Shown here: one piece after another, positions 4,232 to 34,363 of the stretch | Layout: every line of letters begins with the position of its first letter | How positions within the stretch are numbered: the stretch's first letter is position 1 | NCBI GenBank assembly: GCA_023645945.1 | Contig: JALAIB010000086.1 | Span: forward strand, 1-34,363 | Reading direction: 5' to 3' | Length of the DNA: 34,363 nt | Source of the DNA: Diploschistes diacapsis | Lineage: Eukaryota | The notes under the pieces: model-generated | Database searches by the model: none | What the model was told of the DNA's origin: nothing | The model's input: only the letters and a program-made list of their open reading frames with translations | Translations under genes and position numbers: made by a program

Positions 4232-6418
4232 CTATGCGCCCGAGGATGCGTGGGTCATCTGATATTGACCGGCATTCTGCGTTGGGTCTACAGCATACAA
4301 CCCATCCCGGCTGGCTACTGTCGTTGGCTCCATGAATGTTGCATAGTCCCACGAGGAGGGCCGCCCATGCTGTTGTGGCACCTGCTGTGCGGTCATGGGC
4401 ATGGCTCCTGAACTGTGGTTCAAATGCGCCTGTGGATAGGGGTAGGGTTGATAACCGGGCGGCATTGTCGCGGACAAGATGGCCGGGCTTGCGCCAGGAT
4501 ACGGACTGGTGGCCTGAGCGTGTGGCACTTCGCTTGACATGGTAGTAGCTGTCATGGGAGATGGATAGGCAACGCTAATGGAGCTCTCGGCGTTCGAGTG
4601 CGGTGAGGCAGGAAGAAGATCGCCTCCGAAATCCTGGGCTTGTGGACCGCGAAGGTTGGAGCTCATTGAAGGCGGCAGAGCTCCCGCTGTGGATGAATAG
4701 CTAGCAGACTGCGTAAGATCAGCACCTTGACATCCAATAAACGGATTCGTTTCGCTTACATATTTGCCGATGATTTTCTTCAGTGCGTGCGACAAGATCT
4801 TCCACGGGAACACCTTGACATCCTTTTCTATATTTCGGGGCTTCGGGTTTGGAAAGCCCATGATGAGCTTGAAGAAGTCCTCGCTGTCGGATTTGCCTTT
4901 CGAAACCGTCATGGGCCGGAAACCCTCGAGGTTCCGCCGGATCCGGTTCTTCTCCTCGACGGTGAAACGGACAGCCACGAGCGACTCCAGGAGGTAGATG
5001 GTGTCGACGCTCGTAACGTAGTACTCGTTCCTCGATTCCCACCAGATGCAGCTGATGCAGATCGAACTTGGCTGGCGATCTTCAGGCGCCACAGGCTTGA
5101 ACGTCGTGGTTATCGTACTTCTCGTTTGAGATCTCCAGAATTGCACAAGTCTTCTCTTAACGTCCTTCTCTTCTTCGCTCCAATTCTCGATCATTGAATC
5201 CAGGCTCCCACTGATCATGAGACTGGCTTTGTGAGGGTAGATAGCGTAAGGATTGAAGGTACTCGGCGCAGATGCACCAGCCGGAGTGGAGGATGGACTT
5301 GGTGATTGCTGCAACGTAGAAGTGCGGACCAGAGGTGGGTGGGCGAGCGCAGAAGGGGAGGCGAGTGCAGTGGTCCTGCTGTTTGTGGAGCCAGCAATGC
5401 CTGGGCTCTTCAGTATCCGACCTCCGTTCAAATTTGCTATGCTCCATGACGGAGTTTGAGGCGACCTGCTACGAACCGGGGCCGAGATTGGGTTTGTGGA
5501 GGAAAGTTGTAACTGTAAGCCCAGGGGAGAATCCTGTCGTGGATTGGACGACTGGGTTTGCGCTCTTTGGTATGCCGGCAGCACGTTGTTGATCGAAGTG
5601 TCGAGGGCCAAATGCGGCGACTGGTGAAGGTACGAGGGAGTACTCTGTCGTAGGTAACCGTATCCCGGACTTCCGTAACTGCTATTGCTTTCGTTCCGCT
5701 CGTGCTGCGTAACTGCCCGCTTGAACGGCACGATAAGTTCGCTTGGCTCGTCTGATAGCCTCCTTTTTCTCGAAGCTTCGTTCGCGAGTTGCGAAATGCT
5801 AGCGTCTGTATAGGTAAATGCTGGCGTAAGCTTCACCAGAGCGATTTCAAGTCCTGACTGGTCTTGCGCAACAATACTGACTGGAACCTGTGTGCTCCCC
5901 CAACCTGTTGCAGAGAACGACGGAACTTCTGCGCTAAGCGCATACTGATAGTATGATCCCTGAGACTCAACTCTTCTAAGCGTGGCATTGCAACGATGGG
6001 AACCGAATTCGACTTCGAGCCTCCAGGAAGGATCGAGCTCGAATGCGGATATCAAGAATATGAACATTCGCGAGCCCGGTGGCCCCTGTTGCGGACTCCA
6101 GCTCGAGACTTCGGGTATCCGACGTGGAGCATTCGATAAATAGCTCGCTGCACCTTCACTCTGCGCTCCGCGGTTCTGGAAGAAGGCACCTGCTGCATAA
6201 GAGACTTGGTCGGTTGGCCGCGTGTATGAGATGGAGTGGGCCTGCAAATGAGGCTCAATCGCCCCAGGTTGCGCGTATGCAACATACATGTCTTGTTGGA
6301 GCGGTCGTGTAGTTTGATAGTCTGTAGGGATTGGTCAATTAGCATCCTCGTGGCAGCAGAATTGCAGCGCGAGCCTACCTTTGGCGTTAGGGTAGGCAGC
6401 TTTTCCGTAATCGGACAT
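4232..6418 (-). CDS. medA: Medusa/MedA developmental transcriptional regulator (ACR1/Ren1/ACON-3 family), about 692 aa; exons complement(6379..6418, 4760..6321, 4232..4708)
   Basis: The 685-codon ORF holds the MedA conserved domain (RRLVQFWR...CISCIWW...YVTSVDTIYLLESLV...FTVEEKNRIRRNLEGFRP...FFKLIMGFPNPKPRNIEKDVKVFPWKIL). The likely start MSDYGK at 6418 joins in frame via a 57-nt intron 6322..6378 (GTAGGC...GCTAAT...CAG). A second 51-nt intron 4709..4759 (GTAAGC...GCTGAT...CAG) restores KKIIGKY/SASYSS. Confidence 0.95.
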
Positions 6419-7438
6419 GGAAAGAAGAGCTGTTGAAAAGTTAGAACTGGCCAGAAGGCCGTTGTTCCTAGTAAATCCCTTTAACTGCCGCACCACTTTC
6501 AAAGTGTTCAAGCGCGTTGTCCCCTAATATCGGCAGAAAGCTCCTGTTCGATGTCTAAAGCGGAATTTATTAGCGCTTTCCAAAGGCAGAAGGGTGGAGG
6601 TAGCGAAAGTAGGACTCATTGGAGACGTTGACGATGGTGTGGGACACAACGTGCGAAAGTTTGCGCATCAAATGCCCTCTGTACCTCCAGCAAGGAGCTG
6701 GAGGCCAAAGAACCTTGGGAGATACAAGATTGACAGAAAGATAAGACATACCTGGATTGAGCCTTGAGGAGCTAGGACTGCAGTAATGCTCATTGGGTCC
6801 TGGCTCAGTGATTTCGGTGGGGAGACGGAGACACAAGATCAGATAAATCAAGCGTAAGGCGCGTATGCAAGGGCACAAGACCAAGGATCCGGTACAGAGG
6901 TTCGAAGGGGGGCCCAGGACTGTGCTATTTTCGGAAGCGAATGTGTATGCTGCAGAATGTTTGTGTAGAAGAGCTTGCCGAATGCCGTGAGTAGGTGGAG
7001 CTGAGGTTGAAGATATTGCATGCGGGACATGGAGCTCCCTAAATGACCAGGTCCCTCTCCTGCTATGTTCGTCCAGGAGAATGATCAGTTCGCGCTAGCA
7101 ATGGCTTAGGCAAAGTTGTTTCGGAAGAGTCGCATCAACTTAAACAGCAACAACGATCTGTAGGCCAAGAGTTCTGAATCATTTAATGAGCGCCAGCTTC
7201 AAACCAGAAAAGGCTCCCGCCTTTTTGCAGAAGGCAAAGGCAAAGTCTTACCAGCGTCGGACAAAGATCCCTCAACAAGTTCTCCAAAGGCTCGGGACCA
7301 ATGGATACTCGCCAGTCTCCAGACCTATTGGATAGCCTGGCGTGGAGAAAGCTTCTACGAGACCAGTTAGAGAATGTTCAATGACATAAAGGGAGGTAAC
7401 AGCAGTAGTCGGAGGAGCAGAAGAAGTGATAGTCATAC
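6419..7438 (-). promoter_or_regulatory. Predicted spliced 5' leader of medA: intron 6430..7251 (822 nt), exon 7252..7354, intron 7355..7438 (84 nt)
   Basis: Acceptor TTCTAACTTTTCAACAG ends at 6430, 11 nt before the medA ATG. Donor CTG|GTAAGA at 7251. The small intron reads CA|GTATGA...CTAAC TGGTCTCGTAG|. Pairing of the donors with the acceptors is inferred. Confidence 0.6.
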
Positions 7439-8191
7439 TGCAATGCAAGGGATATGCTATTCGACTCGGTCTTTTGGTGGGGTCACAAACCTATCTTTAT
7501 GATACAAGGCCTGAACAGGAACAGGGCAATAAAAGCGAGGCTGGCCCCAGTATGGGAACAAGTGCCTGAAGACGTTTGCATAAGACACCCCGACAAAGTG
7601 GTGCTCCAGGCACTGTGGTGGCGGCTAGATATGTACGGTAATCAAGAAGGCTGCCCGGTGGTTGTCCAACGACTCTGGTTGAACAGCAAGTCAATCTAGG
7701 CACAAGCAAGGCAAGGATGGCCTCCCGCGCTGCAAGGGAAAAGCTGCCCCAGACTGTCGTCGAGTCGCCTACAACTATGCGCTATGTGTATTTTGTTTGT
7801 TGAGCCGACCGAGAGAACCCGCTGAGGAGGCAAAGATGACCGCAAGGGAGAGGGGCTCGCCAGAGGTCGTAACCGAATCTGGACTGGCAGGCGGGTATCT
7901 AAATTATGCTGGTAGGAGTAAGTGGAGGAAAGGCTCAGAATGCGTCAGTACGGCCCGGACGTCGATTAGTATATTAGTGATTAGTACGTTAGATCGCAAG
8001 CAGTGAGGTTCGTGGCGTGCGCAAAAAAGTAACGACTGCGTGGAATTGGAAAGACATTAGAAAATAGAATCATGACCCTTGGGCCGCGGAGAAGAAGGAC
8101 GAAGTCGTGATAACGAGCATGAGCCACTATTGTGTAATATGGAGACTAACAGATATCAGGCGAGGGACGAGTGCCAGGGCTAGGAACTATA

Positions 8192-8246
8192 TCTCTCTCT
8201 CCCCCTCTCCCTCTCCCTCTCCCTCTCTCCCTCTCTCTCTCTCTCT
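8192..8246. repeat. Pure CT/GA tract with (CCCTCT)-like units upstream of medA
   Basis: About 55 nt containing only C and T on the + strand. Confidence 0.9.
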
Positions 8247-22498: not shown

Positions 22499-23342
22499 AT
22501 GTCTGCTCAGGGACCAATTGCGTTCTTCGGTGCCACCGGAGGTTGTGCTAACGCTGCCCTTGCACTCGCTCTTAAAACTGGTTACCAATGCTCAGCCCGT
22601 AAGTCGGATGAAAAACGCGTTGTCCCCAAATGGCAGAAGCTGACCATTGGTAGTTGCTCGCACGCCGCAAAGGTTGCACGAGATGCTCGCCGCCAAAGAA
22701 GTCCCCAAGGAGACGATTGATCGTAATCTGCAGATGGTCCAGGGGGATGTAACGCATGTCGAGACGGTCAAAAAGGTGCTCTTCTACAGAAACCAGCCGG
22801 TGTCGAAGATCCTGTCCGGTATCGGCATGGCTCCCTCACTGAACATTTCAAAGATGGATGGGACTATCTGTAAGTTTGCCTGGTTAGTCGATTCCACGTT
22901 CCTAGGACTGACTCCGGTAGGCCAAAAGTCCGCGAGAACAATCATACAAGCTCTGAAGGAACTCGACTTCGAGAGGAAACCTTACTTTGCACTCATCTCA
23001 ACCACAGGGATCTCTAAGGGGCCACAAGACGTGCCTTTGTTTTGCAGGCCCATGTACCACTGGCTTCTCGCGGTTCCACTCAACGACAAACGAGTTGTAG
23101 AGGAACTGGTTATCGAGGCAGATGAGGAAGGCAAGGCGTTCATTGGCTATACTGTGGTAAGACCAGCTTCCTTGCGGGATACCAAATCCAAAGGTATGAG
23201 GAATATCAGGGTTGGAAGCGAAGAAAAGCCCGTCCTTGGTTATTTCATCTGCCGAGATGATGTTGGCTTATGGATTTTCGAAGAGCTTCTCAAAGGTGAT
23301 GCTTCCAGGTGGTACGGACAGAAGCCAACAATCGCTCATTGA
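22499..23342 (+). CDS. NAD(P)-binding Rossmann-fold protein (flavin reductase/biliverdin reductase B-like atypical SDR); exons 22499..22598, 22654..22869, 22921..23342
   Basis: IAFFGATGGC, ALARTP, VQGDV, ISTTG, YTVVRPASL, ICRDDVG motifs. Introns 22599..22653 and 22870..22920 have GTAAGT donors and CTGAC branch points. Confidence 0.9.
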
Positions 23343-24709: not shown

Positions 24710-26804
24710 ATGTCGACGAGAAAGATTGGAGAAAGTCGAGTACTTGGTAGCGGACGTTCTCTTTCCCCAGCTTCGTCGCCGCAACCCAAGAGAACCTCGA
24801 GCCTACTATCTCCTACAGCCAGTACCACTTCGCTCATATCCTCCGGTTCCACGGCGCATACGTCTCCACCAGACAGTCAAGATCTCAAGTCGAGAGTTTC
24901 TCTGGAACACAACGGCAACGGCAATGTCAACACGGCGGCGGCGGCGTCTGCGAGCTCTCGGCTTGCCTGCCCAATCTGCAACGAGGAGATGGTGAGCTCG
25001 ACCTCCGACAACTGTGGCTTGCCGAGCTAACTAGCGGTCTTCAGGTCACCTTGTTACAGTTGAACAGGTACTGTCACAGGGCCTTGGCAGCTCATCGCTA
25101 ATTCTGCAAGAGACATTTAGACGATGCGCATAAGAATCTAGAGGAGGTTCGGCAGGATGAAGTTAAGGATTGGTTTCGCACGCAGGTTATCAAGGCGAGA
25201 AAGTTTCAGCCGCTCGCTGTTCTAAATCAGAAACTGAAAGGACTGGACGTTTTCGAAGCCAACGAAACAGGTCCGCCTGCGAATGTTTCACCAATCTCTA
25301 GCCCAAGTCGGGTCAGATCGCCTGAACCCCCTCGACCGGACCCAGACGATGCTGTTACGAAGAACCACTGGCAGAGATTTGGGCCCAACGATACCTGCTC
25401 GGAGCCCATGTGTGGCAACAGCCTTAACGCCACAAATGGGAAGGTTAATTGCAGGAAATGCGGGAAATTATTTTGTGAGGAACACACAATGTACCAAATG
25501 AAGCTCTCCAGGTCAGCGCAGCACGAACCGGTCCGGGGTTTTTGGTGCAGAGTATGTGAGACGTGCTATAAATCAAGAGAAGGCTACAACGACCACAAAG
25601 GCATGTGCAACGGGCCTTTTCGCTTTGAAAATTTTGGCTCACTACTTCAGGGTTTGAACGAGATTACACCAAAAGTTTCGCTGAAATACGGAAAAAAAAT
25701 GTGGACAAGACCTTTCTCGAAGTCTCGCGCCTAGAAAAGAGGCTCTCCAGGCTGACCCAGCTTCTTGCGAATCCTCCAGAGCAGACGCCATCTGGCGGTG
25801 GACTCCTTTGGTCGCTATCAACCCTAAAGACTCAGCGGAAGGAACTTGAGCAGTCAGTGGTTCAGTGGGAAGAGGATGCAAAAGTAGCCCGATGCCCGTT
25901 TTGTCAGCAAGACTTTTCGAGTTACACCTTCCGGAGACATCACTGTAGAACTTGTGGCAGAGTAGTATGTGCCGATCCCCGGACAGGTTGCTCTTCCGAA
26001 GTTGGATTCAATGTTGCAGCTGCGAATACACGAAAGGAGAAGAGCGATAGTCATATTGACATTGACATTCGAATGTGCAAGGAGTGCAAACATACAGCCT
26101 TCAGCAAAAAGGACTTTGCAGCAGAGGTTTCCAAAAAACCACCAGACGTCCGCGCTTATGACAATCTTACGCAATTTGAAAGAGGAATCCGTCTACTACT
26201 TCCCAAGTTCCAGCACCTCCTCACTGCACTCCAAGATCCTGACAAGCCGCCCACCTCGAGCCAATTAGCAGATGCGTCCAAGGTACGAAAGCGCCTGATG
26301 GACTCTTTTACCCAATATAACATTGCGGCCCGCCGCTTCCGGGATTTGCCCACGGAATCGGAGACGCAAAAACGACTGCAGAAAGCTGTGTATAACCAAG
26401 CAACAAATTTTCTTCATCTTCACATGCTCCCGCTCAAATCGCTCCCCAAGGTGCTCAAACACGCTTCTCCCAACGGCGTGCCCTCACGTATGCCTCATAG
26501 CCGACAAAACAGCGCTCTTGCGGCAATCAAGTTCAACGACGCCGAGAACGCATCGCAGGTCAGCAGCAGCAGCGCCATCTCCGCGCTCGAAGAGGAAGAG
26601 AAATCGCTACGCGAAAGGCTGATTGTGCTCGAGGAGCAAAAGTTCTTCGTCGGCGAAATGGTGGCGGACGCGAACAAGCGGCGCAAGCTCGACGAGGCGA
26701 GCGCCCTGTCGCAGAACTTGCAGGACTTGAGCAGGGAGATTGATCAGATTCAGGGTCAGATATCCGGGTTGGACTTTGAAGGCGCGTATGCGGGGAATAC
26801 CTGA
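24710..26804 (+). CDS. pep7: Vacuolar segregation protein Pep7/Vac1 (rabenosyn-5 homolog; C2H2 finger, two FYVE-type fingers, C-terminal coiled coil); exons 24710..24991, 25045..25067, 25113..25600, 25651..26804
   Basis: CPICNEEM/VTLLQLNR/HLDDAH C2H2 finger; NCRKCGKLFCEEH...WCRVCETCY; LEVSRLEKRL; WEED...CPFC...RRHHCRTCGRVVC FYVE signature; LREQ-like LRERLIVLEEQKFFV tail. Confidence 0.95.
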
Positions 26805-27847
26805 CTCGCGGCATCGAATGCGTGTACGATAGGCGTTGGTTCTTCTTGCTGATAGCGATTGTACTGGCGAGGAGTTTGGGGCTTTGGTGCTTCCGATTTT
26901 ACCATGGCAGTTTATGCGAGTATGGCATACAGATAGTGAAGAAGAAGCATTCCATTCTGTTGAACACATATCCTCAGAACTTGAAAGTCTCAGCGCCTCT
27001 GTACCGAACCAGCTACTTGCCACTACAACAACGCGGCCCCTACAGCACGCCGATAACATACACAACCTCACAGCGCCTTCTCCTCACACCCAACCACGAC
27101 CCTACCCAAATACCCACCCCACGATATCCGATGCGCACCACAGCCCTATCCAACCCCCTTCCTCTACAAAACCTACAAAACACCCATCAAGGCGAAAAAA
27201 CTCCTTCCCCCCCTCAAACAGTCGCCGCACAAATTCCGTGGGAAACGAGTCCGGCCGAAACGTCTGCACCGTCGCGCGCGCGCGCAACAACATGCCGCCC
27301 CGTCGCCCAACGGCGCGTGTGCAGATGCGGTGCCGGTCGCACACAACGGACGGATGCCGCGCCCCGTGCTGCTGCGCCACGCAGGGAATTGGTCGCTCCT
27401 CCCAGCTGCCCCCCTCTTTTTGTGCCGTCGGGGCGTGGTGTTAGCGGTGGTGGTGCTCTCCGTCCCATGCTGTGCTTGCTGCTGTAGTCGTGCACACCGA
27501 GATTCATGGCCAGGCTGGCCCTCTGCGTACAGTCGAAAGGGAAGTAGGTCCTTGTGGAGTTGACGGGCCCATTACATTCCTGTTGCCGTCTTCGCCAGAG
27601 TGCTGCCAAATTGTCGAAGGCTACATGCCTATGACGAAGCTTGAGGGGATGGAAGACAGAGAAGTCCAGTGGAAGAAGAGGACCACCATCGCTCGAGAGG
27701 ATAGCATTATATGCCATGTTTATCAGCAAGCAAAGCAGACCTAAAATTCTTCCGACGTTTGATTCGGCTTCGTGCGAGCATGAGGATGGAATCATTTAGC
27801 CTGAATTGGGAAAAGCGCAGGGATCTACGCCCCGTACGTTTCTTATG

Positions 27848-29499: not shown

Positions 29500-30730
29500 C
29501 CCAAGCCAAACTTCCTACTCTATGCTTAAAACGACCTCGCTCAGCATCCAATACTCCGATAGCCTCACTCTGATACACTCGACCAGGCACCTTGACTTGT
29601 CATAGTACTCCTAATCTGAGGGATCCAGCAGTTGAGCTGATGTAAATTGTTTTTCCCCTCCCACCTGACGGCTGCATCATCAATGACTTGCGCATTCAAC
29701 AGATGGCGTTAAACGATCGCTTCCCCGGAAACCCCTAAGCAAACGAGCTCCAAGACGGCCAGAAAGCTGGGGGCTGTACTCGTCCCCCACATGATCCAAG
29801 CCGATGAAATGCAGGTAGCGCGGTCCGAAGAGTACCTCGTAGCGAGTGGCCTGGTAATGTACATCGTGGTGGCCGAATTGAGCTCCAGCTAGACCATGAT
29901 GAAGCAGCTGCCGTCTTTCGTTGCAAGAATCCTACGTTATGCGATCCACCAGTGTCGAAGACGTCCGCGCTATGAAGTACAATAGACTACTCATTAGACG
30001 TAAGGACCAGTGTCAAGAGACGAACTTTAGAGTAGAGACCCGCAAACATAGGAACCATTAGGCGCGAGGGCTCGACCGTTATACATTTGCTAAAGCCAGG
30101 ACTTACCATCCAAAAGCCTCGTAACGAGGCTTTGAATTACCACATGGGCATCGCTGCAACATCCAAATGATAGCAGCCTCGGTCTCTCTTCCTTGGTCCA
30201 AGCAAACCGTCTCGGAAATAAGAAAGTGCCTCGCGATCTGTAATCAGCTGTCTTGCGTAGACGTATCTTTGCATTACGTCCTTCAGCATTGTGCACATCG
30301 AAGCCAAATGTATTCTCGCTTGAGGCATAAACATCTCCTGCAGTAATTTTGCCGCCGCAGACAATATCTTGCGGTTGCGAACATGTTCCAGGAGCTTCTC
30401 GGCACTGCATAGACCTGTGTGCACTTTCCAATCTGCCCTCTGGCAAATAATACTGCAGTACCAGGCTCGGATCTGTCCATGGTTGGTCGGACACTGGCGC
30501 AACTGCCTGCGCAGACAAGCATTGCTCCCTTTTGATAATGGAGGCAAACCCCTCTCTCCCTTTGCTATCACTCTGAATCGTGGGGGCAATATCTCCAACC
30601 AGTCTGATATGACTAGCGTGCCCTGGAGACTATGCCAATAGTCTTGAACTATGTTTGGCTGAGGATCGAGTTTATCTTCCCAATATATGAATTGATGGGA
30701 TTGAAGAGGACAAAGTGGTAAGGAATGCAC
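29500..30730 (-). pseudogene. Disrupted MYND-type zinc finger protein gene (copy 2, more decayed; boundaries approximate)
   Basis: WYCSIICQRADWKVHTGLC...RKILSAAAKLLQEMF parallels copy 1. Frameshift near 30330 into ENTFGFDV...LLSFGCCSDAH...RLLDG, matching LSYLCCTDAI...RMMA of copy 1. GTAAGT donor at 30106 in the equivalent position. No open frame afterwards. Confidence 0.65.
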
Positions 30731-31605
30731 AATACTCGACGAAGCGCTATATGTCCATATATCTTGAAGGCTCGGAAATTATACCAACAAATCATCAGCT
30801 TCCATAGGTTCCTAACCAAATACCTTGTTGTGGTCGTCTGTGTGTTCGACGCCAGGAACTCGGGCTATGTGGGAGCAGCGTCGCTGTCTGCAACAGCAAG
30901 CAAGAAATTCAACGGCGACTTTGTGCATTTGATTACTGGAGATGCAATATAGATAGGTACATTGCAATATGACCGAGAGGGAGAAGGGAAGGTAAGACGC
31001 TGAGCTGACAAGAATATAACTTCCCTTGCAATCCACGATCCAGCGTGTTACTGCTTGCAGACGGCGAAGCCATGCTCCATGTATTTCACAGAATTTATGA
31101 TAGTGACGCAAAGTTATGACAGAGATGCCAGCCAGGAATGTTGTGGACGAAGAAGAAGTTCTTGAAGTGAGTCTCTAGAGAGCAGAAAGAAGTGCTTACG
31201 TAAGCTTGCCCATCCTTCCATGCAAAAGAAATCCTCACCTTACGGAGTACATACATATATCTAGCAATACGACTGTTAGCACTCTCGAAAGCTCTCAAAG
31301 TTAACATTTGGCGTGATAGACGTGACCATAGCAGTCGGTCGAATGATAATATTATGCAAAGGTACAGTACCAGGCTGTTTTTGCAAGGTGTGGTTGCCGC
31401 TTGCCTTGCCACATGCCGGATTCAAGTTCCAAGTTGTTTTTCCCCTCTCATCAGCCTTTGCAAAGTTAGCAACTTGAACTTGAACCTGAACCTAACACGC
31501 TAAACTCCAAATTGGAGCTCACGCCATCCAATATCTCTAGATATATAATTCTAGGGTACACCCGCTACCTAATTTGCCCTTTAGGATTCAACTTTGTCTG
31601 GCAGT

Positions 31606-33056: not shown

Positions 33057-34363
33057 ATGGACCTCAAGAGCTCTGCCTCTGCTGCGATTGACGATCATGA
33101 AGCCAGGCATCTTTCCCCGAAATCAAATTCATGGAGCTGGAAACTGGCACCATGGGCGTTCGCAGCCGCGGGACTCTTCCTTATGTACTGGTTCGACCAT
33201 CTCGGTATATCTGTTACACGCCCATGGGATCGTAGTTTGATATCAGGCGTGGAAAGTCCTCGGGAGAATCTCAATGGCTTTGCATGGAAAGACGTATGTC
33301 TCGTAGCACATTTGAACTATGGGAATGCTCTAATCGCAATGAAAACAGATTACACCCTCGCCGAAGCTTGAATACACTTCGTGTTTCAGTGGCTTCGAAT
33401 GTGCAAGATTGCAGGTCCCACTAGACTGGAACTCGACGGACGTAAAGAGTCTCAAGGCCAACATAGCCATCATTAGAAAACCTGCCCTTGTGCCTGTAAC
33501 AGATCCGCGATACGGTGGGCCGATACTCATCAATCCTGGTACAATCACCACTACTCTTGTGATGTATGCACACAATGAATACTAAACCGCAACAGGTGGT
33601 CCAGGAGGCTCTGGGGTCCAATTTGTGGCCGCCGTAGGTGAGGCCTTGCAGACGATTGTCGACTCTGGATCCGAGGGTGGGAAATACTTCGACATCGTCA
33701 GCTTCGATCCAAGAGGAATCAACAATACTACTCCAACGGTGCCCGGCATCAAGGATCCTGGAGTGCTCCGTGAGTACAAACAGAAGTCTACGGATTTCGG
33801 CTTCTCGGTCGACGACGAGGAGTCTTTCAACAAGATCTTCGAGTTGAACCGCCTGTATGGACGCCTCATCTCATCGCCCGAGAACGGTGGTCTCGAGAAC
33901 GGTGAACACATCGGGAACTTCATTGGCACGGCGAGTGTCGCCCGGGACATGCTAGAGATCGCTGAGCGACATGGCGAATGGAGAGAGGAAACCGCCCGGT
34001 GCAGGCTCGATTGCCAATGCAGCGACATCTGCCATGACCCGCTGGATGGCCTCGATTACGAGAACAACGTCGCCACTACGATTGAGCGCACGGCGTGGCG
34101 CAAAGGTGCCGAGAAGCTCCAATACTGGGGCTTCTCCTACGGCACGATCCTAGGCCAGACCTTCGCATCCATGTACCCCGAGCGCGTGGGGCGGCTAGTC
34201 CTGGACGGCGTGGCAAACGTAACGGACTACTACGCCGGCGAATGGTTCACGTCGATGCGCAACGCCGAGGACATCAACGCCAACTTCAGCGCCGCCTGCG
34301 CTGCCGCCGGCCCTTCCCTCTGTCCAATGGCAAATTGGACGGCACCAAACCTCTCCCCCCAAG
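33057..34363 (+). CDS. TAP-like (tripeptidyl aminopeptidase-like) alpha/beta-hydrolase peptidase with N-terminal membrane anchor, 3'-truncated by the window; exons 33057..33293, 33349..33538, 33596..>34363
   Basis: FECARLQVPLDW, ILINP/GGPGGSG, FDIVSFDPRGI, GTASVARDM, nucleophile motif YWGFSYGT, YPERVGRLVLDGV. Hydrophobic segment WAFAAAGLFLMYWF near the N-terminus. Confidence 0.93.

Follow-up and report, generated by a model that had tools for sequence, protein, structure and literature searches.

A candidate spliced N-terminal extension of MedA in Diploschistes diacapsis and a putative CUG start codon in related fungi

Introduction

Does the coding region of the developmental regulator gene medA begin at the AUG at which it is annotated, or further upstream? 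This question is raised by a stretch of 34,363 nucleotides (nt) from Diploschistes diacapsis (assembly GCA_023645945.1, contig JALAIB010000086.1), referred to here as the window, which carries medA on its minus strand. MedA, a master regulator of asexual development in fungi, controls conidiophore development; in Aspergillus fumigatus it also controls adherence and virulence. A first-pass annotation of the window had proposed that gene callers miss a spliced, CUG-initiated N-terminal extension of MedA. In kind, this proposal holds: a conserved extension precedes the annotated start, with a predicted start codon, donor and acceptor that differ in the window from those proposed.

The 2-kb main open reading frame (ORF) of the gene, at 6289-4232 on the minus strand and uninterrupted in the assembly, matches DUF7082 (Pfam PF23305) with an E value of 3.7e-74 over residues 354-507. 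The presence of DUF7082 in the C-terminal half identifies the product as a MedA / DUF7082 developmental regulator. Among 8000 scored candidates, 2298 were homologs of this ORF with E ≤ 0.001, and the nearest named MedA homologs were those of Lecanoromycetes such as Xylographa, not of Aspergillus. The deposited NCBI model P0292 (a protein of 709 residues from a D. diacapsis metagenome-assembled genome) falls into the same 90% cluster as the window ORF, and an identical ORF is carried by an independent Logan contig. It starts with MSDYGK at ATG 6418, leaving out the N-terminal extension, for which Pfam holds no model either.

6416..6418, minus strand: annotated MedA AUG (MSDYGK), the start of P0292 and the counterpart of an internal, nearly invariant Met of the family (invariant in ortholog alignment A2).

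Results

A conserved frame precedes the annotated start in related MedA genes

For comparison, 80 related loci were taken from metagenome contigs. A start-exon pattern matched in 36 of the 80; L044 was dropped as a false match far downstream. Upstream of this pattern the frame was open, conserved and intron-less, and in 16 of 21 distinct sequences it contained no Met, the remaining five representing one divergent lineage. An extension profile matched 55 of the 80 loci. Searched against 1.84 billion proteins, it matched 140 cluster representatives, 40 of them with E ≤ 1e-10. Regular expressions for a PIILD-type block and for the start exon were found in this order in 45 of these 140 representatives, with a Met between them in a single one of the 45. 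Moreover, several annotated Lecanoromycete models have N-terminal extensions ending in ...AALLSM. About 45 codons ahead of the annotated Met are thus coding and free of AUG in relatives that belong to several fungal classes.

The extension opens in the relatives just after a canonical acceptor and is entered from a short upstream exon with the consensus acCgTCAAn CTG GC, in which exactly 9 codons lie between the CTG and a phase-0 GT donor. Of the 33 distinct exon-2 sequences, 24 yielded this exon 1 and 6 did not, and the other three had too little upstream DNA for the search. Its start column is CTG in 23 cases and GTG in one, CTG being given by construction in 19 of the 24, as the seed pattern required CTGGC. 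The five finds that are independent of the seed have CTG in L018, L029, L056 and L068 and GTG in L079. The four CTG loci lack intron 1, so that the CTG is continuous with the extension, and in L018, L029 and L068 the whole gene is a single intron-less ORF. The ORF of L068 is open from 7 codons ahead of the CTG, with no in-frame ATG until 52 codons past it; a search with this intron-less form for longer proteins gave no match. Intron 1 was assigned by script in 19 of 23 ortholog loci, with predicted lengths of 16-257 nt, the shortest of which result from over-extended acceptor choices.

Several variants of this arrangement were observed. In exon 1 of L079/L080 the start column is GTG in L079, and the model P0141 of Marssonina coronariae has a V there (..TVKVAYSTYRLFE), each a near-cognate substitute for CTG in this column. 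A divergent lineage (L028, L030, L031, L034, L036 and L065) has no PIILD block and carries an in-frame Met 41 codons before MSAYGK (MQPALLSPYPFNEF...); exon 1 was not found in it. In the D-E/D-D part of the PIILD block of ortholog exon 2, the Asp before Glu is encoded by GAC in nearly all loci, a choice that avoids the out-of-frame ATG of GAT GAA. GAT GAA is used in L021, one of the few loci in which an ATG does intervene between CTG and main AUG.

Sequence constraint around the CTG of exon 1

The context of the CTG was uniform: position -3 is A and position +4 is G in each of the 23 distinct contexts. Between the CTG and the preceding in-frame stop, 4-71 codons away, no in-frame ATG occurred in any of the 23, and in five of them no other near-cognate codon did. 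Up to -13, within-group divergence was high and did not vary with codon position (about 22-25 differences per site); it dropped to about 6 from -12 and showed a coding periodicity from +4 to +30, with 6.6, 6.4 and 12.4 differences at codon positions 1, 2 and 3. Exon 2 gave 332, 218 and 676 differences at the three positions and the intron control 184, 202 and 185, all as pairwise counts that are not phylogenetically independent. An excess of third-position changes was therefore present in exons 1 and 2 and not in the intron.

The leader before the CTG was free of ATG over a median of 173 nt, compared with 45 nt at random positions, and over at least 100 nt in 21 of 23 loci, compared with 25% of random positions. 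Once spliced as predicted, 23/23 loci have the CTG and the main ATG in the same frame. From the CTG to the main ATG (mean 176 nt) no ATG was found in any frame in 20 of the 23, the chance of one such ATG-free stretch being about 6% by our own arithmetic. L021 and L048 have one ATG each, and the third exception, L070, is an artefact of an in-frame intron that was not removed. Both features of a cpc-1-type extension are hence seen in the relatives: a frame that is open and conserved at the protein level before the first AUG and holds no in-frame AUG, and a near-cognate codon in strong context at the 5' edge of conservation. From these comparisons we infer that CUG serves as start codon in Leotiomycete, Lecanoromycete and several other lineages. 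The claim of the first-pass annotation that the extension starts at CUG thus finds its counterpart in the relatives, which are AUG-free with an invariant, well-placed CTG, and not in the window, where this column is GCA.

Annotated models that include the extension have unrelated N-termini, and the JGI models P0104 and P0137 (flagged partial) begin without Met. The same class of exon-1 peptide starts with an AUG in Sordariomycete-type proteins (Corynascus similis P0160, and P0235, P0237, P0274, P0290 and P0291) and in Calycina marina P0143. In all of these the AUG precedes the CTG column by about 5 codons. The contigs that carry the short ORFs P0122 and P0128 lack intron 1, and that of P0128 also lacks intron 2. 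Coming from libraries of unstated type, these intron-less contigs give weak support at the RNA level.

The extension in the window

The conserved extension was located in the window directly upstream of ATG 6418, in two reading frames.

6419..6554, minus strand: conserved extension in exon 2, 136 nt = 45 codons + 1 base, located by profile and by BLASTP against P0222.

The 5' half of the extension (TSNRSFLPILGDNALEHFESGAAVKGIY, then a stop) lies in one frame and the 3' half (RNNGLLASSNFSTALLS) in the frame of ATG 6418. A profile built from 144 sequences recognised the 3' half together with the MedA start as the sole significant match (E 2e-10) among the 1709 six-frame fragments of the window, and the alignment extends 17 residues upstream of Met 6418; an earlier, smaller profile had given E 0.055 on the same stretch. 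In BLASTP against P0222, the closest available relative, 7 of 18 residues of the 5' half (E 3e-4) and 12 of 17 of the 3' half (E 3e-5) were identical. Neither alignment contains a gap; the two are exactly colinear, with a surplus of one base near 6470, and P0222 has 45 codons by our own count over the stretch that matches 6554-6419. No ATG occurs in any frame of 6554-6419. The 5' half starts directly after a TTTAG acceptor at 6559-6555, which is preceded by a GCTAAT branch site.

The following elements are proposed upstream of this stretch.

6555..6751, minus strand: proposed intron 1, 197 nt (predicted), with GTATGT donor, GCTAAT branch site at 6574-6569 and TTTAG acceptor.
6752..6793, minus strand: proposed coding part of exon 1, ATG 6793-6791 + 13 codons (MSITAVLAPQGSIQ) with phase-0 end, placed by donor column, phase and motif.
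6865..6874, minus strand: upstream motif GCCCTTGCAT, a candidate promoter-proximal element found in the Lecanoromycete comparison, with a second partial copy at 6859.

Like intron 1 of the orthologs, the interval 6751-6555 has GT-AG boundaries, a branch site, phase 0 and the common position; its acceptor falls exactly at the start of the exon-2 homology with P0222. Among donors within 700 nt that could feed the phase-0 acceptor 6554, GTATGT 6751 is the only strong one with an in-phase ATG. Aligned from the upstream motif, the GT of the window stands in the same column as the donors of L002, L007, L004 and L006, and the distance from motif to donor is 123 nt, compared with 126-147 nt in relatives. 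The family CTG column corresponds to GCA 6781-6779, 10 codons before the donor, and ATG 6793 lies 4 codons upstream of it. With GCA in this column and TAG 6470 downstream, the window has no homologous in-frame near-cognate start. ATG 6793 is preceded by a 225-nt leader that is ATG-free and 63% pyrimidine. Splicing of intron 1 would remove three ATGs (6749, 6668 and 6619), and the spliced leader contains no further ATG before 6418.

The motif used for this alignment, GC(G/C)CCCTTACAT, lies 94-115 nt before the CTG in 5/5 Lecanoromycete loci (L002, L004, L006, L007 and L012) and was found in one of 18 other loci, there at -371. The match at 6874/6859 is the only one in the MedA leader of the window, with 0.1 expected per 400 nt, and the motif block aligns with the relatives in alignment A3. 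The block is absent from that position in other lineages and is specific to Lecanoromycetes; it may be a core-promoter or transcription-start element.

The CUG exon proposed by the first-pass annotation

The first-pass annotation had placed the extension differently, using the following elements.

7252..7327, minus strand: putative first exon with TAG 7327-7325 and CTG 7315-7313; no profile match, located above the upstream motif.
7246..7251, minus strand: GTAAGA donor; canonical sequence, use unsupported.
6430..6444, minus strand: CTAAC...CAG 'acceptor', which equals the S-N-F-S-T-A codons of the conserved extension.

All of these were found on the minus strand: the TAG, the CTG, GTAAGA at 7251-7246, CTAAC at 6444-6440 and CAG at 6432-6430, 11 nt ahead of ATG 6418-6416. 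The CTG stands in the context AGA CTG G, with A at -3, G at +4 and an in-frame stop 4 codons upstream, and joining 7252 to 6429 gives an open, AUG-free frame running into MSDYGK. According to this model, a start at CUG 7315 in a 21-codon exon, followed by an 822-nt intron (7251-6430), would yield a 25-residue extension. Its signals are canonical, with GT-AG boundaries and a branch site (GTAAGA, CTAAC, CAG), its splice would skip the frame break at 6470, and the DNA is ATG-free between 7387 and 7182.

The intron 7251-6430 nevertheless fails the test of constraint, as the 17 residues before the Met are conserved whereas the upstream exon is unrecognised. If the intron were constitutive, conserved protein sequence (12/17 identical to P0222, profile E 2e-10) would be intronic. 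The frame before ATG 6418 is conserved, and CTAAC...CAG therefore represents codons of the extension, namely TCT AAC TTT TCA ACA GCT. The CTG-7315 exon was listed by neither kind of exon-1 profile, scoring -1.6 to -1.7 bits against the protein profile and not being found by the DNA profiles; the orthology check thus gave no significant match. The ATG-free leader of CTG 7315 is 69 nt long (nearest upstream ATG 7387), which is below all 23 orthologs (minimum 77 nt), and CTG 7315 lies 441 nt upstream of the Lecanoromycete motif block at 6874, so that the exon is on the wrong side of it. The 822-nt intron is about three times as long as any ortholog intron 1. Moreover, 14 GT-AG pairs leave the CTG-7315 frame open into ATG 6418, and the GTAAGA donor itself keeps it open with two acceptors, 6495 and 6429. 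The open frame across 7252/6429 is for this reason unexceptional and no more than expected by chance.

Being in phase 1 for the CTG-7315 frame, the GTAAGA donor has no in-frame entry to the ancestral acceptor 6554; the ortholog-style splice of this donor to 6554 was rejected because it meets a stop. The frame in the window would start at an AUG through a different splice, from exon 1 with ATG 6793 and 6752 joined to 6554. Taken together, a start at CUG 7315 is quite improbable. None of the three elements (CTG 7315, donor 7251, acceptor 6430) is likely to be in use, and 7252..7327 is probably upstream non-coding DNA.

Two other candidates were seen in this leader.

7179..7196, minus strand: second strong-context CTG (GAAG CTG GCG CTC), with a stop 5 codons later.

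CTG 7196 was the best exon-1 profile match in the leader and not significant (7.1 bits with the protein profile, E = 5 with the DNA profile). The first residues at 7179-7200, KLAL, resemble Lecanoromycete exon 1; a TGA stands at the sixth codon and there is no donor. This CTG may be a decayed duplicate, a 5-codon mini-ORF or a chance match. The second candidate, ATG 7436 (a 54-codon ORF) as ortholog of the Xylographa N-terminus via a frameshift or a tiny intron, was rejected, since it would require GT-AG introns of 27-54 nt or the loss of conserved residues and since the extension was mapped elsewhere.

The frame break in exon 2

The two halves of the extension are separated by one surplus base.

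6468..6473, minus strand: frame break, TAC followed by TAG, the latter a stop in the frame of exon 1; extra base within about 6494-6468.

Residues 35 and 36 of P0222 correspond to 6473-6471 and 6469-6467. As assembled, the frame of exon 1 ends at TAG 6470-6468 after 42 codons. The context of the break contains runs of three A, three G and three T. One explanation, short of an even chance and still a serious possibility, is that the surplus base arose as an indel in the assembly or consensus; the gene would then encode an AUG-initiated extension of 59 residues that is made. For the alternative of a real mutation, the chances stand at about even; the first 42 codons would then have become an upstream ORF, and the short isoform only would be produced.

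A real break leads to a further reading, according to which this species has no long isoform at all. The extension and exon 1 would be recent relics, perhaps no more than a 42-codon upstream ORF or sequence outside the main transcript, and MedA would be made from AUG 6418 only. The closure of the exon-1 frame by TAG 6470-6468 fits this reading, as do the loss of the family CTG column, the weak conservation of the 5' half and the replacement of the invariant I and L of the PIILD block (PILGD). Furthermore, the short form of A. fumigatus, and even residues 346-557 alone, complements a medA deletion according to the accessible part of PMC3503810. Against relics stand the 3' half of the extension, which with 12/17 identities is as conserved as the MedA start, the ATG-free exon 2 of exactly 45 codons + 1 base, and the intact donor, branch site and acceptor; an AUG-initiated upstream ORF of 42 codons would also depress translation of MedA. 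We consider this reading unlikely.

Finally, a real break could be decoded, either by a +1 ribosomal frameshift at UAC-UAG-G (6473-6467) or by an alternative acceptor, 6524|6523, leading into the frame of AUG 6418. In antizyme-type +1 shifts a stop codon occupies the A site and the correct +1 frame comes next, a geometry that UAC-UAG-G resembles by analogy, and a junction of exon 1 with 6523 leaves the frame open into MedA. The relatives (P0222, P0229 and all loci) have no frame break, and therefore nothing conserved points to a programmed event. Acceptor 6524 is the fourth AG after the branch site, and its use would delete the PIILD block. Decoding of the break is thus extremely improbable.

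The remainder of the gene and its neighbourhood

Downstream of the annotated start, the gene consists of the following parts.

6322..6378, minus strand: intron 2, 57 nt, after MSDYGKAAYPNAK + one base; P0292 reads ...PNAK, then DYQTT.
4232..6321, minus strand: rest of the MedA coding region (DUF7082), by the Pfam PF23305 match and homologs.

Within the MedA ORF an in-frame 51-nt intron (GTAAGC ... CTGAT ... CAG) was observed at 4709-4759 on the minus strand. P0292 translates it, which adds 17 residues (VSETNPFIGCQGADLTQ); in orthologs such as Xylographa, ...GKY adjoins SASYSS and the 17-residue insert is absent. A GA/GAG-rich microsatellite lies at about 8190-8240, upstream of the medA leader. 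The neighbouring genes encode an NAD(P)H-binding protein (22644-23342, plus strand), a protein with FYVE and Rabenosyn Rab-binding domains (25102-27487, plus strand; Vac1/Pep7-like), a zf-MYND protein (30137-30778, minus strand) and an alpha/beta hydrolase (33586-34362, plus strand).

Discussion

The interval upstream of the annotated AUG is probably the mis-annotated 5' end of the MedA (DUF7082) gene, as described by one model for the family and the window. Conservation, reading frames, motifs and coordinates were observed directly; from these sequence data we infer the use of start codons, the splice junctions and the isoforms. In this model, MedA of Pezizomycotina would have an ancestral N-terminal segment of about 50-57 codons ahead of the usually annotated Met, made up of a short exon 1, a short phase-0 intron that is absent from some lineages, and about 45 codons contiguous with the Met. 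In Leotiomycete, Lecanoromycete and several other lineages the segment would be AUG-less and would start at the invariant CUG (A at -3, GC at +4/+5). Most ribosomes would leak past this CUG to the first AUG, giving two isoforms. The window would have the same architecture in shifted form, with exon 1 from ATG 6793 to 6752, intron 1 at 6751-6555 and the extension at 6554-6419, the AUG 4 codons above the old CUG column having taken over and the column itself now being GCA. The relatives thus point to CUG initiation in the family, and the start in the window appears to have moved to an AUG.

Several observations weigh against this model. In the window, the long frame is closed as assembled, so the extension may not be made in this genome; the 5' half was not detected by the profiles, and BLASTP gave no alignment to P0229. 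The peptide MSITAVLAPQGSIQ was not recognised by the exon-1 profile (-2.1 bits), and because of this the assignment of exon 1 relies on position, phase and the upstream motif only. Furthermore, ATG 6793 has C at -3. Among the relatives, 6 distinct lineages (of 33) gave no exon 1 although their upstream DNA was long enough, the CTG of 19 of the 24 exon-1 finds is a product of the CTGGC seed, and the substitution counts are pairwise.

For the family, a two-isoform arrangement seems more likely than not. In most Leotiomycete, Lecanoromycete and allied lineages, MedA would be made from one mRNA as a long form from an invariant CUG whose context is ideal (GUG in one lineage) and a short form from the first AUG about 50-57 codons on. 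Switching between CUG and AUG would have occurred repeatedly (Sordariomycete-type, Calycina, window), the start codon would set the ratio of the isoforms, and functional work would have addressed the short form only. Should there be a conserved long isoform, about 55 conserved residues, among them the invariant P-I-x-D core of the acidic PIILD-type block, are missing from constructs and annotations starting at the internal Met. The family would also provide a clean comparative example of CUG/AUG start-codon turnover, and the family-wide CUG start is more interesting than the result for the window. For the window itself, the gene model would be corrected by adding a new exon 1, an intron of 197 nt and an extension of 59 codons, and by removing a 51-nt intron that is left unspliced near the 3' end.

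Comparison with known systems

The experimental work on MedA was done in Aspergillus. By our own translation of the primer table in PMC3503810, the A. fumigatus constructs begin at the Met equivalent to AUG 6418, and the accessible part of that paper states that N-terminal truncations of MedA accumulate faster. For A. nidulans medA, two transcription initiation sites are given in the accessible part of PMC3563288 (citing Busby et al., 1996); by analogy, these two transcript starts could separate long and short MedA forms. As far as the accessible parts of PMC3503810 and PMC3563288 go, Aspergillus MedA differs from the proteins considered here in that these papers describe no non-AUG extension upstream. 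The CUG exon is present in L029 and L018, whose annotated starts are MSAFQK and MSAYEK. A non-AUG or near-cognate start for medA or acon-3 was not found described in the openly accessible literature, as far as its available text goes, and the accessible text of PMC5487733 with its 10 supplementary files mentions neither MedA nor acon-3.

Among MedA proteins, the window can be compared with the AUG-started orthologs from Corynascus, the Sordariomycete-type group and Calycina. These combine the same class of exon-1 peptide with the PIILD...LLSM block and then the internal Met, and the window likewise has an AUG a few codons before the CUG column. The frame of the AUG-started orthologs is intact, whereas the window has a one-base break and a much more diverged exon-1 peptide.

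The CUG-started relatives resemble cpc-1 of Neurospora crassa and its Pezizomycotina homologs, for which conserved N-terminal extensions from near-cognate codons were described (Ivanov et al., 2017, PMC5487733, in its accessible part). The two systems differ in that one dominant CUG, located in a short exon of its own, characterises MedA, whereas cpc-1 has several near-cognate codons, a 700-nt leader and two upstream ORFs. For cpc-1, initiation is supported in vitro and in vivo, whereas the CUG start of MedA is predicted here from sequence. Common to both, as far as the available text of PMC5487733 describes cpc-1, are an open, conserved frame that precedes the annotated AUG and lacks in-frame AUGs, a conserved near-cognate codon flanked by A (-3) and G (+4), and heterogeneous annotated models.

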